A stretch of DNA of 64,000 nucleotides, taken from positions 672,001 through 736,000 of the forward strand of contig CAWFQK010000004.1 in the NCBI GenBank assembly GCA_963817955.1. Reading direction: 5' to 3'. The DNA is from an uncultured Gemmatimonadaceae bacterium. Lineage in GTDB: Bacteria; Gemmatimonadota; Gemmatimonadetes; Gemmatimonadales; Gemmatimonadaceae. Below, in pieces: positions 55,264 through 64,000 of this stretch. A program made the position numbers and the translations under genes. Every line of letters begins with the position of its first letter. The stretch's first letter is position 1. The notes beneath the pieces were generated by a model, which saw nothing but the letters and a program-made list of their open reading frames with translations, searched no databases and was not told where the DNA came from.

Positions 55264-56222
55264 CTACTGGAACGCCTCTTCCAGTTGTCTCAACCGCGCC
55301 GCGAGCTGCTGTCTGACTGACTTCGGTGCCAGCACCTCGGCCTCCGGCCCGTACTGCAACACATGCCGCATTGCCCAGTGCTCGTCCGCGAGCGGATGCT
55401 CCAGCGTCAGGCTGCCGTCCGGGGCAACGCACTTCCCTTCCCGCTCCGCGATCCATCCAGCGATGCGCGCCGAGTAGCGCACAACGAGTGTCTCGGCGCG
55501 CTCCGCCTCGAAGAGACGGGTGCCCGTGATGATCTCATCGACTGAATAGTCGGGAGCAAGCTCGAAGTGTCTCGTCGGTCTGCGCCACCGACTCCATCCG
55601 GTCGAGCCGGAAGACTCGCAGCGCCTCGCTGGTCCTGGCAGAACGCCACCATGTACCACATGCCGCGAGCGAACACGAGGCTGTACGGGCAGACAATACG
55701 CGATCTCGAGGTCGTCGATGCGCCGGCACGATAGCGGATCTCGAGCTTGCGCCGCAGGCGATGGGCGGCCTGAATGGACGCGAGGTGATCGGCACCAGCG
55801 GCCGAGATCTCCGCGTGCTGTACGCCTTCGAAACGGTCATTGACCGGCAGTCGAGTGATCGCCTGTCGCAGGCGCTCGAGCGCGCGGTCTACTGCCGGCC
55901 ATTCCTCCGGCGTCCGCTCGCGTCGCAGGAGCGCAAGCCCAAGCTCCAATGCGCACAGCTCGCGCATCGTGAGTCGCATCGGTCGCAGGAAGTGCGTCGT
56001 GAATGCACTCACTTCCCTGTCGTCCCACTCGAGGCTCAGGCCGGCGACGAATCCGCTCGGTTCGTCGAAGCGTTCGCCGAGGGAGATCACGTCATCCAGC
56101 AATGTCTTGCGGGAGACGCCCAGCCGTTCCGCAATGTCATCGATGGCGTGGGTCTCGCCGTCCGCGACCTGCGGAATGAGGAGGAGGATTCGATTGAGCG
56201 CGTGCGCGGCGGTGTCGCTCAT
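55264..56222 (-). pseudogene. PafC-like WYL regulator, second copy, with frameshifts near 55635 and 55570
   Basis: Highly similar to 45271-46227; single-base insertions (may be sequencing errors). Confidence 0.85.
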
Positions 56223-57325
56223 GCGTCCACCCGTGAGTCCGCCTGTGAGTCCGCCAGACTGCGATCGTAGAGCTTGCGCGTCGTCTGGAGCACCTCGCGG
56301 AACTGCGCGATGATCTCGGGCGGACCAAGCGGTATGGCTTCACCGGCGAAGGAGAGCAGCCACCACACGAATCGATCGGGCCGCCGCACGGCAAATATCC
56401 GGTGGGTCGGTGCGTCCGTCACCGGCGAGCCGAGTGCGGCAGCCGCGATCACCGCGCCGCTCGAGCCGCGGAACTCCACCGTCACCGAGACGACCTCATT
56501 GTCGCCGAGTTCCCACGCGAGTCGGGAGCGAGCGTGCTCGCGGAGCACGAACGATCCCGGAATCTCGTACTGGGGCACCTCGCGGTCGGGAGCAAGCTGC
56601 TTCACTCCCGCTATGCGATTGACGCGGAAGTTGCGCAGTGCACCGCGATCGACGTCTCGCGCGACGAGATACCAGTGTGCGTTGAGAAAGAAGAGCCCAT
56701 AGGGCTCGACCGTCCGAGCGGTGGCGCTGTCATTCGCGACCGCGCGATACTCGAAGCGGACCAGCTTCCGACCGTGCAGGGCGTCGCCCAACGCCTCGAG
56801 CACCCGCCTGTCCGCTGGCGCGCGGGCGGGCACAATCACGGTGTCGTCCGTCGCCGACACGGCTCCGATGGGAAGATCGTACGCCAGCTTCCGCATGGCG
56901 CTCGCCACGTCCGCCGCCAGGGGTGCGTTCCCGAGCTGCTCCGCTCGCGCCGCGCCCTCGGCCACCGCTTGCAGTTCATCCGCGTCGAAGCTCAGGCTCT
57001 TGAGCGAATGATACCCGAACCGATCCACCCGTGAGGGTGTCGACTTCCCGCGTGGCGTGGTGACGGACAGATAGGGCAGGTAGAAGTCCGCGGTGCGCAG
57101 ACGATACCGAAAATCCGTCTCGCCGTCCTCTCCTTCGCTTTCGATGGGAACGCCAAAGGCTTTCAGATCCTTCTTGTCGCGTTCGAACTGGCGCTTGGCG
57201 GTCGCCCTCTCCTTTCCATTGTAGGCCGGTACTTCGCGGGCGATCTCATCGAAGGTGATGGCGCGCTGACGACCGAGCAGCGCGGCCAGGAGGTCGATCC
57301 AGCGTTGCAGCTTGGACGATGACAT
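56219..57325 (-). CDS. WYL-domain regulator, PafB-like (intact copy)
   Basis: RQFERDK..L...GVPI, VEPYGL...WYLVARD...FRVNRI, WCX domain. Confidence 0.92.
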   Translation of the reverse strand: MSSSKLQRWIDLLAALLGRQRAITFDEIAREVPAYNGKERATAKRQFERDKKDLKAFGVPIESEGEDGETDFRYRLRTADFYLPYLSVTTPRGKSTPSRVDRFGYHSLKSLSFDADELQAVAEGAARAEQLGNAPLAADVASAMRKLAYDLPIGAVSATDDTVIVPARAPADRRVLEALGDALHGRKLVRFEYRAVANDSATARTVEPYGLFFLNAHWYLVARDVDRGALRNFRVNRIAGVKQLAPDREVPQYEIPGSFVLREHARSRLAWELGDNEVVSVTVEFRGSSGAVIAAAALGSPVTDAPTHRIFAVRRPDRFVWWLLSFAGEAIPLGPPEIIAQFREVLQTTRKLYDRSLADSQADSRVDA

Positions 57326-57379
57326 TCGCTACGCGGTGGGGAGCTGGTGCGGCATTGGAAGCCTATTCGAAGGAGAAAC

Positions 57380-57562
57380 TTACCGCTCCTGAACCTCGAG
57401 AATCACGATGTTCCTGAACGTCGGGTGCTGCCGTTGGAGCTCCGCCTGGATGGCGAGTTCCGACTGACCGTAGACCGTCAATACGGCCCGATTGACGCGT
57501 CGCTGGTCCGAGCCATCGGTCGAGTGCTCATAGATGACGCTGAATGTCTGGTAGTGCGCCAC
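57380..57562 (-). CDS. 60-aa hypothetical protein, copy B
   Basis: GAGGAGG RBS; paralog of 46842-47024. Confidence 0.7.
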   Translation of the reverse strand: MAHYQTFSVIYEHSTDGSDQRRVNRAVLTVYGQSELAIQAELQRQHPTFRNIVILEVQER

Positions 57563-59460
57563 TCAAGTCGCCTCCTCTGTTCTGGGTAGGTGAGGCCGCA
57601 CCAACTCCGTGAGCGTTTCCTGGTCTACAATAGACTCCGACATCAGCCGATTGGCTATGGCATCCAGGAGCGGGCGATGCTGGGCAAGCATCTCCTTCAC
57701 CACTCCGTATTCTGTAGAGAGGAACGCGCGCACGAGTTCCTCGATGTGTGCCGCTTCCGAGCTAATGTCGAAAGGTGTGGAAATAGACGGAAGGCGGTGA
57801 CACCTTCTCGGGTGAGTCCAATCACCCCCGGGAGAATCCCGGCAACGAAAAGGAGCCACCGCCCATGAAGAAGATGAAGGATGAGCCAGCCACGTCAAGC
57901 GCGACGTGGGACACGTTGGAGTCCTTTGCGCGGATGCATATCCAAGGATTCATTCAGCAGCTGTTGGAAGAGGAGGTGACCGAGCTGCTCGGGCGACAGA
58001 AGTCCGCGCGCCGCAGCGCGGTGGATGCGCCGACCGGGGCGCGCAACGGGCACGGGAAGCCGCGAAACCTCTCGCTCATGAATGGGACCATCGTGGTGCG
58101 CCGGCCACGGGTGCGCGACCTGGATGAGCTGTTCGTGAGCCGCCTGCTGCCGCTCTTTCAGCGGCGCACCAAGGAACTGAGCACGCTGTTGCCCGAGCTG
58201 TATTTGCATGGCCTCGCGCTCGGGGATTTCGAACTCGCGCTCCGCGGCCTGTTGGGCGACGGGGCGCCGCTGAGTGCGAGCTCGCTCGTGCGCCTCAAGG
58301 CGACGTGGCAGGCGGAGTATGCGGTGTGGCAGCGGCGCGACCTGAGCGACCTCAAGCTGGTGTATCTCTGGGCGGACGGCGTGTATGTGAAAGCCGGGCT
58401 TGAGCACAGCAAGGCAGCGCTCCTGGTGTTGATCGGCGCCGACGCGGAGGGGCGGAAACACGTTCTCGCGGTGACCAGTGGCGAACGCGAATCGGTGGTG
58501 AGCTGGACCGCCGTGCTCCGCGACCTGAAGGCGCGCGGGCTCTGCGCCCCCAAGCTCACGATCGCCGATGGGCATCTCGGGCTCTGGGGCGCACTCGCGG
58601 CGATCTATCCGACGAGTGCCGAGCAGCGGTGTTGGAATCACAAGATACGGAATGTGCTCGACCTGGTGCCGAAGAAACGCCAAGCCGAAGTCACCGTGCA
58701 GCTCCAGCAGATCGCCGCGGCGGAGACACTGCGGGCGGCGGTGCGGCTGCGCGATGCGTTTGCCCGCACGTACCGTCGCGTGGTGCCCAAAGCCGTCGAG
58801 TGCCTCGAGCGTGATTGGGACCGCCTGGTCGCGTACTACGCCTTTCCGCAGGAGCACTGGAAGCATCTGCGCACGACGAACGTGATCGAATCACCGTTTG
58901 CCGCGGTGCGGCTCCGCACGATCCGCGGCGAAGCGCTTCAAGAAAGTCGACAATGCCACGACGTTGATCTGGAAAACCTTACTCGTCGTCGAACAACATT
59001 TCCGCAAACTGAACGCCCCGCACCTCTGTACCGACGTGTACGATGGCGCCGTGTTTCACGACGGTATCTGCACCGTGACCCCGACCCGGGAACGGATCGC
59101 CGCCTGACGCCTATTTACACACCAATTGACAAGAGCTCCCGCTTCCGAGGCGCAGATTGATACGCACGTCGTGACGCATATCGGCGTACGTGTCTCGATC
59201 ACCAGACTCGTACAGGAACTTGTACGATTCCACAACGGCACCCTTCAGGTTCGCAGACGGCAGGATGGATGAGTATTCCGGAACATTCTGGCCGTCGGAG
59301 TCGATGACGGCGACCAGGGCGTGTCCAGCCTCGTGGTACGCCGTCTGCCGGCGGATCGCTTCTATCTCCGTGGACGGCAACTCTGCCTCCTCGAAGCCGC
59401 GCAGGGTCAGGTTGACCAGATCGACGAACTCCAATTTGCGTTTCTCGCGTGGGGCCGATT
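57563..59460 (-). pseudogene. FtsH/peptidase M41-like C-terminal domain interrupted by IS256
   Basis: TAYHEAGHALVA at ~59315-59350; HRPLLDAIANRLM..IVDQETL tail at 57563-57758. Confidence 0.8.
57759..59138 (+). mobile_element. IS256-family element with 28-bp imperfect IRs and 8-bp target duplication CCGCTTCC; transposase 57865-~59107 (frameshift near 58920)
   Basis: RNGHGK, YLWADG, IADG, QRCWNHK, LRTTNVIES; TSD at 57751-57758 and 59139-59146. Confidence 0.95.
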
Positions 59461-59484
59461 AGTATTCCTATTGCAGGGCTGCTC

Positions 59485-60050
59485 CATGCTGATTGAGAAC
59501 CCGATAGCAATCGCCTCTTCCTACTGGGCGAAACTGCCACGATTAATATGGCAGAATCACATCCCAGTAGCCTCGACGCCCATGGGCGAATCGAAAATAA
59601 TGGTTCGACTCGACTTGGGCGGACGTGACGACGCATACACGTTACACGTTCTCAGATGGAAATCAGGGGCCGGAGTATTCATTCCGGCCTTGTGGGTGTC
59701 CGAAACCCTCAACCAGCATCAGAGGAGGTGAAGATACATGCGAATCGGGAAACCGAAGAAGGCACTCCGCAAACTGCGCGGCACGAAGCGTGGCAACGAG
59801 GTGCCGAATCGGCGGACACGAGTTTCGAACGGGAAGCCCTCATGGTTCCCGACGGATATCGCGAGCGTTGCCAAGGCCGTTGGTAAGCTCGTCACTTCGG
59901 AGGTCACGAAGTGCCTAGTGACCGAGGCTTACAACGTCATCCGCGAATACGTATCGAGACTCACCATCCGCACTACACTCCGCTTCGGCGGCTGCACCAT
60001 ACGACTAGACCGAGCGCTCTCGAAAGTCATGAGCGGCTCGGTCTTGTCAA
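59485..60050 (+). ncRNA. Candidate large structured RNA upstream of the RT
   Basis: More than ten stems found by eye, C(UUCG)G tetraloop at 59980-59991, long hairpin at 60003-60048. Confidence 0.55.
59486..59731 (+). CDS. Possible small ORF (81 aa) overlapping structured region
   Basis: Open frame only; no clear RBS or motif. Confidence 0.2.
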   Translation: MLIENPIAIASSYWAKLPRLIWQNHIPVASTPMGESKIMVRLDLGGRDDAYTLHVLRWKSGAGVFIPALWVSETLNQHQRR

Positions 60051-60064
60051 TTCCTCCGGTATGA
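59738..60064 (+). CDS. Basic 108-aa ORF coupled to the RT
   Basis: AGGAGGT RBS at 59723-59729; stop overlaps RT start (ATGA); no recognisable family. Confidence 0.45.
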   Translation: MRIGKPKKALRKLRGTKRGNEVPNRRTRVSNGKPSWFPTDIASVAKAVGKLVTSEVTKCLVTEAYNVIREYVSRLTIRTTLRFGGCTIRLDRALSKVMSGSVLSIPPV

Positions 60065-61164
60065 CGAACGCAGGTCGCAAGCTCGGACTTGGGAGTATCG
60101 CGGGTACGCTGTGCACAAAGATCGCGTGCCTCAGGAAGCACGCCGCTGAAGTGAACACTTCCTATTCGCGTTACCCGAAGAAGAAGTCGTCTGGCGGCCA
60201 TCGGTGGATAAGTACTCCATCTGATGAGCTGAAAGAGCTACAGGGTCGCCTTCGCGAGCGCATCCTCGAACCACTCTCCTCCACGCCCGAACTCCTCGCC
60301 GTGTTGATGCGAGACCCGCTCCGAAATGCTCGCCTGCATGAAGACGCCGCTCACATCTTGATGCTCGACTTGAAGGAGGCGTTCCCGTCAACCTCAGCGC
60401 GGCGTGTGAGAAACACTCTCGTTCGAGCTGGCATGGACTCTCCAGCGGCGCGACTCATCACAGAGCTGACTACATACCGCGACGAGCTTCCGCAGGGAGC
60501 CCCCACGAGCAACGCACTCCTCGACCTGGTTTTGCGCCCAATGGATAGAGCCATCGTTCGGTTCTGCAGACGGCGTGGTGTCCAATACACTCGCTACGCC
60601 GACAACCTTGCCTTCTCATCAGAGGAACCACTCAACTGCGTGGAGCGTTTCGTCCGTCGGAAGCTTGGGGAGTACGAATTCGAGATCAATCCGCCGGTGT
60701 ACGGAGGTCGTTCGGCTCCAGTGGACATAACCGGCGTACTCACTGGCAAGTCTCTCCGGGTTCGGCCGAAGACGATCGAGAAGACCAAGGCTCGTATCAT
60801 CGCCGCCGAGGCCACTGGCTCCGAGCCTGAAAAGGCGTCCGCGAGGGGGGCAATGGGCTGGGTCGTTCGTGTGAACCCTCGACAGGCGGCAGAACTCGTC
60901 TCCCAGACGCTTCCACCCGAAAGTGAACTCGCGAAAGCCCTGGCACCAAGACGTCGGCCTTCAGCTGTTGATAACAGCGTGAGTTGCGGCGAGCGACTGC
61001 GGATTAGCTCAACCTCGCCAAAGTGCCTCGACGGGGTCTACTCCGATTCCCTGATCTGTTCCGGACGGCACCCCATCCCGCCACATCGCGTACAGGATTC
61101 CTACGAGCCGCCGCTCCAGGGCGACCACCGCGATGCGTCAAGTGCGCGACATCACGCCGAGTGA
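60061..61164 (+). CDS. Retron-like reverse transcriptase with YADN motif
   Basis: KKSSGGHRWI..P...LK.LQ, NARLH (NAxxH), LDLKEAFPS, LPQGAPTS, YTRYADNL, ITG (VTG-like). Confidence 0.88.
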   Translation: MTNAGRKLGLGSIAGTLCTKIACLRKHAAEVNTSYSRYPKKKSSGGHRWISTPSDELKELQGRLRERILEPLSSTPELLAVLMRDPLRNARLHEDAAHILMLDLKEAFPSTSARRVRNTLVRAGMDSPAARLITELTTYRDELPQGAPTSNALLDLVLRPMDRAIVRFCRRRGVQYTRYADNLAFSSEEPLNCVERFVRRKLGEYEFEINPPVYGGRSAPVDITGVLTGKSLRVRPKTIEKTKARIIAAEATGSEPEKASARGAMGWVVRVNPRQAAELVSQTLPPESELAKALAPRRRPSAVDNSVSCGERLRISSTSPKCLDGVYSDSLICSGRHPIPPHRVQDSYEPPLQGDHRDASSARHHAE

Positions 61165-61281
61165 CCTCGACAAACACAAAGGTGCGGACAGGCGGTAAGT
61201 TGGCGATTGTCAGTGGTGCGGTGCAAGTTCAATCTCTCGCCGCCCGGCATCACCTGGCGCCCCCTCCTGAACAACTTATAG

Positions 61282-64000
<2,719 letters not shown>

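Follow-up and report, generated by a model that had tools for sequence, protein, structure and literature searches.

A retron-type reverse transcriptase with asparagine at the second motif C aspartate, coupled to a small basic open reading frame behind a structured leader in a Gemmatimonadaceae genome

Two kinds of described retrons come closest to the module reported here, in which a structured leader, a small basic open reading frame (ORF) and a retron-type reverse transcriptase (RT) follow one another in a 64,000-nucleotide stretch of an uncultured Gemmatimonadaceae genome (contig CAWFQK010000004.1; the whole stretch is called the window, and positions are those of the window). Retron-Eco1/Ec86 (type II-A; PDB 7v9u, 7v9x) provides the best solved relative of the window RT by sequence and by fold, and type II-A retrons (Ec86/St85) have a nucleoside-deoxyribosyltransferase-like effector with a DNA-binding domain. 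Type VI retrons (Retron-Vpa2, Retron-Sen3) consist of a small toxin named SP, a Cro/C1 helix-turn-helix (HTH) protein, an RT and a hybrid RNA. The HTH gene is described as lying upstream of the RT or overlapping it in about 78% of 158 type VI entries, some of them with SP (10.64898/2026.04.27.721009), and Mestre et al. 2020 give a length of 91-110 aa for the type VI HTH (cluster 2_1) and of 75-79 aa for auxiliary proteins (PMC7736814). In the account of Retron-Vpa2, a hybrid RNA of ~470 nt serves as template for the RT and also contains the gene for SP, with its ribosome-binding site and AUG in stems; SP is reported to be translated only after phage-triggered accumulation of complementary DNA (cDNA), and RT catalysis to be unnecessary for keeping the toxin silent (10.1101/2025.10.22.683967). 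The two aspartates of the Y-x-D-D motif are treated as invariant in RTs and are the standard site for "dead" RT controls. The RTs of Vpa2 and Sen3 both have them, as seen from the RT-dead mutants made at YADD or DD193-194 (10.1101/2025.10.22.683967, 10.64898/2026.04.27.721009). The window RT has an asparagine in place of the second one.

The RT ORF runs from 60061 to 61164 on the forward strand (ATG at 60061, TGA at 61162-61164, 367 aa). Its core (60061-60972, 304 aa) has the same length as the nearest homologue, a database protein labelled P0001, and is recognized by Pfam and PADLOC models, by likeness to Ec86 and by structure prediction with AlphaFold2 (AF2) and Foldseek. The codons TAC GCC GAC AAC at 60595-60606 are read in this frame as Y179-A-D-N182, so that motif C is Y-A-D-N instead of the Y-x-D-D of a catalytic retron RT and the YADD of Ec86. 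Around it, the protein keeps NARLH (60325-60339), the first Asp of motif A (D103, 60367-60369), LPQGAPTS (from 60487) and ITG (60727-60735). All these features had been named by an earlier reading made from the DNA alone (hereafter the sequence-only reading), and each of them was found again in the RT frame. Common to the Ec86 RT and the window RT are NAxxH, LPQGAPxS, Y-x-D, VTG/ITG and a C-terminal helical region.

By sequence and fold, the window protein belongs among the retron RTs, in an unclassified lineage that is nearest to Ec86. Besides NARLH and ITG, it shows a full-length match to the Ec86 RT, retron RTs as its fold neighbours and retron models as its best PADLOC matches. Pfam finds RVT_1 (4.6e-12), and 49 PADLOC families match, with retron RT models in the lead (1e-38 to 1e-43). 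RT_II-A comes first (1.4e-43), together with III-A (1.7e-41) and VI (1.1e-40), and the Ec107-like, XIII, XI and X models are also within a few bits of II-A. The RT_VI model covers the protein from end to end but is not the best-scoring one, and PADLOC assigns no retron type to the window RT or to the 12 representatives of its clade (described below) that were scanned, among which the top model varies. Against solved structures, a profile of this clade gives 162 bits for the Ec86 RT (E 1.3e-46, 276 profile positions), ~100 bits for other retron RTs, 35 bits for a group II RT and about 33 bits for DRT2, a defence-associated RT (DRT). An AF2 model computed from a 29-row alignment (pLDDT 94, pTM 0.88) has 7v9x_A as its top Foldseek match (E 3.5e-20, TM 0.73, 26% identity). 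Foldseek ranks 1-17 are all retron RTs, after which come DRT2 (rank 19), diversity-generating retroelement (DGR), group II, G2L4, DRT9 and Abi-P2 structures. An identity as DRT or UG/Abi RT was rejected since DRT2, DRT9 and Abi-P2 fall below all retron RTs by fold and by sequence, and DGR and group II RTs were rejected since both score well below retron RTs; only the right-hand RT fold and RVT_1 are common to the window RT and these families. No PADLOC DRT model is found among the best 25 of the 49 families. Of the "divergent retron/DRT-like system" of the sequence-only reading, the retron part is thus retained and the DRT-like part is abandoned.

The asparagine of motif C recurs in the closest homologues. 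A word-indexed protein search retrieved 1157 proteins at E<=0.001; among the best 120 of these that were listed, seven have Y-x-D-N, all of them within the nearest nine, while 110 have DD and three have no pattern match. The best of all, P0001, is a 304-aa protein with 93% identity, located on a 53.9-kb contig of an independent metagenome assembly, and it also reads YADN. An exhaustive profile search through 1.84 billion representatives gave 18,364 matches at E<=0.001, and 148 of the best 150 listed were parsed for the motif (P0015 and P0043 were left out). Asn was found in 10 of these 148 (132 Asp, 6 unparsed), nine of the ten being within the top 13. The scores go from 455 to 268 bits across these first 13 representatives and then fall to 222. 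Outside these near relatives, a further 250 retron-like loci retrieved from genomic, metagenomic and viral contigs lack Asn without exception. The 238 loci among the listed matches of a clade-alignment search of genome, metagenome and viral contigs, a search that relied on generic retron peptides, are all ordinary DD retron RTs.

In a maximum-likelihood tree of 49 rows (support given as ultrafast bootstrap/approximate likelihood-ratio test), the window RT falls inside a clade of 20 rows with a support of 99/99. Fifteen of its members are DN and five are DD (P0005, P0008, P0123, P0126, P0127); outside the clade, every row with a readable motif is DD (28/28). In each bootstrap tree the D/N label takes four changes, the simplest account being a single gain of Asn and three returns to Asp, and the column of the second Asp is occupied exclusively by D or N across a clade whose end branches measure 0.5-1 changes per site. 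In the 29 aligned rows, D103, F108, P109, PQG, S150, Y176, R178 and D181 are invariant, and this invariance includes the branch of 0.6 changes/site that leads to the window and P0001. Changes found clade-wide are A107, N151, D155, G215 and A276, of which D155 is located in the motif B helix and is Asn outside the clade. Judged by these homologues, the lineage, which comes from soil and peat, is a rare one where Asn at the second catalytic Asp is the normal state. The Asn of the window itself is on this evidence real and lineage-typical rather than an error, because the 93%-identical P0001 of an independent metagenome also has YADN. Between the altered chemistry and the non-catalytic role offered by the sequence-only reading, the same pattern favours an active site that still works in altered form over a dead one, because the column is confined to two isosteric residues and a dead site would drift; it is from this constraint that we infer catalysis.

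Asparagine at this place has parallels far from bacteria. Mononegavirus polymerases have a GDN motif, with Asn at the corresponding position. Closer to our case, a natural YVDN is described in spreading retroelements, the nematode Belpaoviridae (Cer7-Cer13, Atlas virus), where the Asp-to-Asn change is lineage-wide as well (PMC9094657, PMC554778). They differ from the window RT in being eukaryotic long terminal repeat retroelements in an unrelated context, and their RT activity was unmeasured according to the 2005 text (PMC554778). Full-text searches on retrons and RTs returned no report of a bacterial RT with YADN, YVDN or YXDN. The main text of Mestre et al. 2020 and that of the 2026 SPIRE retron survey mention neither YXDD nor YADD, though their supplements may list variants; the word "catalytic" is absent from the SPIRE main text, and the passages of Mestre et al. 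2020 seen to use it do not concern the RT active site. A separate observation relates to the outer relatives of the window RT: P0130, P0132 and P0134 are tandem double-RT fusions in which both RT halves keep DD, and one double-RT fusion, of 1381 aa, begins with a Ser/Thr protein kinase domain (Pfam 2.4e-40).

Relatives at the DNA level help to delimit the module. Parts of the stretch occur in seven runs from six studies, which are peat or soil metagenomes where labelled; no RNA run was listed among them, which carries no information on expression. Contigs of four runs from four studies (X1-X4) were aligned at 80% likeness. Parts of the module are present in the contigs of all four at about 93-97% DNA identity, and the X3 contig spans the YADN codons. 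In X1, record 4 (a 33.4-kb contig) aligns with 59452-61800 at about 93% identity (159 other letters, five gaps), and the 30 kb upstream of its match are without similarity to the window. On this alignment, the left edge of the module is 59452, the start of the leader, because the X1 similarity starts there. The module and the downstream gene hmaA are contiguous in this contig, which represents a second genome. The module also stands out by its composition, with a GC content of 0.54-0.60 across 59400-60800 versus 0.64-0.71 in the flanks, a drop that the sequence-only reading had likewise noticed.

Directly upstream of the RT lies an ORF of 108 codons (59738-60064, forward strand; ORF108) that encodes a basic protein of no known family. 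Its TGA (60062-60064) overlaps the RT ATG (60061-60063) by two bases (ATGA), and Lys/Arg make up 23 of the 108 residues of its product, with 13 within the N-terminal 40, which bears out the Lys/Arg-rich overlapping ORF announced by the earlier reading. A Shine-Dalgarno (SD) box, GAGGAGG (59722-59728), is found 9 nt before the ATG, and the GC content at third codon positions (GC3), 0.71, is the highest of the three frames. Two relatives' contigs cover ORF108 free of gaps (X2 record 12 with 10 differences in 292 nt, X4 record 28 with 24 in 394 nt). Because of this SD box, the in-frame GC3, the ATGA coupling and these gap-free contigs, the small ORF is likely coding, with the RT start coupled to its stop. 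ORF108 has no Pfam or PADLOC match at E<=0.01. It is nevertheless the only effector candidate of the module: in line with the earlier reading, Pfam and PADLOC scans of five ORFs (RT, ORF108, two M41-like fragments and the N-terminal piece of HmaA) revealed no known retron effector within the module and no nucleoside-deoxyribosyltransferase-like effector among the five. The possibility that ORF108 is an XRE/Cro HTH was considered and rejected, as hhalign against seven HTH genes of outer relatives gave a probability of 0.35% and no HTH Pfam model matched. By eye, its first ~12 residues (59738-59785) resemble the starts of HTH proteins of outer relatives (L243 1159-1210, L245 1172-1220) in a pattern of M-x-I-G, basic residues and L-R; the profile comparison (0.35%) gives no homology support to this resemblance.

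Upstream of ORF108, positions 59452-59737 on the forward strand form a structured 5' leader, as defined by folding z-scores and by the edge of the X1 alignment, and constitute a candidate retron non-coding RNA or 5' part of a hybrid RNA. Its z-score is -4.36 versus -2.15 to +1.82 in 12 control windows of equal length taken in the RT, hmaA, transposase and WYL genes and further upstream (25 dinucleotide shuffles each). The fold of 59470-59740 gives -4.09 (200 shuffles) and that of 59440-60090 (651 nt) gives -5.6 (20 shuffles only). Since the ORF108 part alone has a z-score of -1.5 against -4.36 for the leader, the exceptional structure is that of the ~285-nt leader; the sequence-only reading was right about self-complementarity and too generous with its extent, which it had put at about 600 nt. 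In the minimum free energy structure and the partition function of 59452-60090, a 5' strand at 59500-59520 (anti-SD/anti-start) is predicted to pair in a long-range helix with 59722-59749, which holds the SD box, the ATG (59738-59740) and the first ORF108 codons. More precisely, 59511-59520 pairs with 59722-59731 and takes in the entire SD box (probabilities 0.86-1.0), and 59500-59505 pairs with 59744-59749, i.e. codons 3-4 (probabilities 0.88-0.98). These two helices close a domain of six hairpins, and the same helix recurs in the separate folds of 59470-59740 and 59440-60090. The dominant predicted fold would thus bury both the SD and the start of the small ORF.

Four X1 variants fall in the leader among the 40 of 775 differences that were listed: two are unpaired and two are transitions that preserve pairing, C-G becoming U-G at 59587 (partner G59607) and G-U becoming A-U at 59630 (partner U59643), which makes them weakly consistent with the fold. 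As a candidate for the a1/a2 pair, a 12-nt inverted repeat (59486-97 / 59708-19) was rejected as part of the dominant fold since its ensemble probability is 0. Three 8-nt direct repeats occur in 59452-60070. One of them, an exact repeat (59586-59593 / 59740-59747), joins a leader hairpin stem to the first ORF108 codons and recalls the conserved direct repeats proposed for the Vpa2 riboregulator; such repeats were given no weight because about three are expected by chance in 619 nt. A promoter and terminator scan found nothing above shuffles.

The comparison with type VI retrons reveals both likenesses and differences. As in type VI, the gene immediately before the RT in the window is small and overlaps the RT start; the transcript would be long and structured, with the small ORF inside it and, as predicted from a single sequence, its ribosome-binding site and AUG paired; and in outer relatives of the window RT the RT start is overlapped by an HTH gene. 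Indeed, in the nearest same-phylum DD relatives, an XRE/Cro-type HTH protein of 104-111 aa overlaps or abuts the RT start at the very place of ORF108; one same-phylum relative is an HTH-RT fusion, and P0163 is a further one. Unlike type VI, the window has one small ORF, not two, and no Cro/C1 HTH protein is found at its RT start. At 108 aa and strongly basic, ORF108 is also unlike the type VI auxiliary proteins of 75-79 aa given by Mestre et al. 2020 (PMC7736814). By analogy, the predicted burial of SD and AUG by the leader resembles the Vpa2 design reduced to a single ORF. In same-phylum HTH-RT relatives, we also observed a small acidic helical ORF that starts just upstream of the HTH gene and overlaps it (L248 2446-2967, L249 2422-2976 and L251 2640-3014 on the reverse strand, L250 884-1540 on the forward strand), and which may be the counterpart of the small toxin of type VI.

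We tentatively favour a compact three-part retron-type module, extending from 59452 to about 60975, in which the leader, the basic 108-aa protein and the YxDN RT would act together by a type VI-like mechanism; this we hold to be quite possible, if still short of probable. By analogy with Vpa2, the RT would bind the leader and copy part of it, and the long-range helix would keep the small ORF untranslated. The RT, being coupled to the silent small ORF, would then be made only at a low level. A phage-induced build-up of leader-derived cDNA, or some other remodelling, would open the helix, upon which the basic protein would be made and would act as the effector, leading to abortive infection. The Asp-to-Asn change would leave a working but slowed or metal-shifted polymerase, and a slowed enzyme would fit because the system must not make cDNA constitutively. 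A more ambitious proposal is that of a new retron type, with neither HTH nor known effector domain, in which YxDN and changes like D155 throttle or re-tune cDNA synthesis while a cDNA switch opens the leader riboregulator and releases a small basic toxin; we regard it as rather doubtful.

A retron RT lineage whose motif C is Y-x-D-N and whose small partner is no HTH appears to be new, and the system-level picture is that of one locus and its near-identical relatives. If the proposal of a new retron type were true, no earlier prokaryotic RT lineage would have been shown to function with Asn in place of the "invariant" second aspartate, and the inverted logic described for type VI, in which the toxin is switched on by cDNA, would reach beyond that type. 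The locus also adds a further, independent example of a small ORF concealed, by prediction, in the leader of a retron, which bears on how far this logic has spread. A natural lineage that keeps Asn over long distances, toggles only between Asn and Asp, and leaves the remaining active site untouched makes the role of the second aspartate testable in a small, soluble and well-modelled enzyme (pLDDT 94), whether this role lies in metal choice, in rate or in the discrimination between priming and elongation. Besides, a slow or metal-gated retron RT may interest the engineers of retron editors.

Several observations weigh against this type VI-like module. The motif D Lys is the general acid of polymerases. 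A Lys/Arg is present there in 27 of the 29 aligned rows and is lost through a 2-residue gap in the window and P0001 only, which have INPPVYGG in common (60685-60708); therefore, this sub-lineage may be catalytically weaker than the remaining clade. Altering either Asp of YXDD is described as inactivating for the RTs of HIV-1 and Moloney murine leukaemia virus (MoMLV) (PMC554778). The window RT ORF also extends 63 codons (60973-61164) beyond the end of P0001, which terminates at the Asp corresponding to 60970-60972 and lacks this extension in the alignment. Besides the window itself, no clade-level RT match was found in ~1,670 sampled genomes (60 relatives, 400 genomes of its own phylum, 400 of its own family and two sets of 400 from the phyla to which an Acidobacteriota locus and a Planctomycetota locus belong, all of them samples); the best other RT match among the 400 own-phylum genomes reached 199 bits, and a tblastn search of plasmids gave matches of <=33% identity only. 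For ORF108, no homologue was found among 5.8 billion clusters beyond its own 90% cluster of two members, and its single-sequence AF2 model is poor (pLDDT 46) and unusable. The leader offers no identifiable a1/a2 pair with a branching G, two chance snoRNA-like matches are all that Rfam yields at E<=5 over 57000-62000, and comparative support for the leader fold and the small ORF is confined to relatives that are 93-97% identical. Finally, the surrounding island is rich in broken genes (WYL1, M41 peptidase, transposase, HmaA, HmaB, HmaC). With an island that is badly damaged or misassembled, a 63-codon read-through in the RT and no RT found in the other genomes sampled, the copy in this genome could be a relic even with the clade as a whole being functional.

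Pushed further, these last points would make the whole locus a decaying retron remnant in a degrading defence island, where YADN, the loss of the motif D Lys, the loss of the stop and the lack of an effector are steps of pseudogenisation. The split or multi-frame state of the neighbours, the C-terminal read-through, the missing known effector and the failure to find the RT in 30 congeners searched all agree with such a decay. However, the RT and the small ORF are intact over 1.2 kb, and P0001, which was assembled independently, shares both YADN and INPPVYGG with the window RT and differs from it by scattered, mostly conservative changes. Parts of the module recur in the X1-X4 contigs at about 93-97% DNA identity, most members of the clade have YxDN, so that it is no private lesion, and the broken neighbours may partly be assembly indel errors. 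We consider a relic unlikely for these reasons. The many frame breaks in the nearby assembly could likewise be taken to suggest a base error at 60604, or else the locus might be a canonical YADD retron whose known effector has merely been lost. This is highly improbable, since P0001 shares the Asn and 14 further proteins of the clade have Y-x-D-N; the close homologues, which the sequence-only reading would have expected to be all YADD if its proposal failed, are thus mostly YxDN and not canonical YADD retrons.

An RT that has given up polymerisation, and that acts as an RNA-binding scaffold or sensor to hold the leader and control the small protein while no cDNA is made, would be compatible with the inactivating effect of engineered changes at the second Asp in HIV-1 and MoMLV RT (PMC554778) and with the absence of a motif D Lys/Arg in the window and P0001. 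Type VI retrons offer a precedent, as toxin neutralisation and HTH binding are both reported to need no RT catalysis (10.1101/2025.10.22.683967; 10.64898/2026.04.27.721009). This scenario is as unlikely to us as that of a relic: a dead site should drift over end branches of 0.5-1 changes per site, whereas the column remains N or D only, its four label changes most simply include three returns to D, and all 29 rows retain the motif A Asp, the steric-gate Phe, LPQGAPTS and, in motif C, the Tyr and the first Asp. Moreover, natural YVDN retroelements do exist in nematodes (PMC9094657). The small ORF might also be no gene at all, so that 59452-60060 would be one long non-coding msr-msd RNA with an incidental reading frame, and the effector would lie elsewhere or be Hma. 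The absence of homologues outside its own cluster points in this direction, as do the gene-caller product of the 93% relative, absent as a separate match, the z-score of -5.6 for the entire 651 nt, and the presence of module and HmaA together in the X1 contig. On the other hand, the ATG is preceded at 9 nt by a canonical SD box, no other frame has as high a GC3, the ATGA overlap parallels the overlaps between HTH genes and RT starts in outer relatives, the ORF part by itself folds with a z-score of only -1.5, and its own cluster has two member sequences. A non-coding ORF108 is therefore quite improbable in our eyes, though less so than an error at 60604.

The three-part module sits in a badly damaged or badly assembled neighbourhood, lying as first read between a gene disrupted by an insertion sequence (IS) and an SNF2 helicase. 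The IS is a multicopy Mutator/IS256-type element of 1381 bp (57759-59139, forward strand; Pfam) and is not part of the module. A 97% copy is found elsewhere in the genome (C2:901242-902620, query 10-1390), together with several fragments, and the window transposase has one extra base at 58920/58921 relative to all four runs, which causes a frameshift. The gene that it splits encodes an M41-like peptidase (Pfam; fragments 59434-59140 and 57758-57563, reverse strand). This gene is placed outside the module because X1 matches only from 59452, and the peptidase was rejected as an effector since it is on the opposite strand, split by the IS and outside the stretch common to X1.

On the other side, HmaA, the SNF2 helicase of an Hma system, extends over 61282-64000 on the forward strand and is read in pieces in several frames, with PADLOC E-values of 1.2e-165, 4.3e-71 and 9e-42 for three of them. 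A complete-looking Hma system (HmaA, HmaB, HmaC; PADLOC E 1e-42 to 1e-198) covers 61282-64000 and the following sequence, L253 1-7200 (G000:C4:736001-743200). This region also has a PtuA-like ATPase fragment, and each large gene is in two to five pieces in different frames, which points either to decay of the island or to indel errors introduced by long-read assembly. Upstream of the island, 55407-57325 on the reverse strand contains two adjacent WYL-domain regulators (a PafC-type HTH+WYL and a WYL+WCX protein), a kind of regulator that often adjoins defence systems; the first of them (WYL1) ends in apparently out-of-frame sequence.

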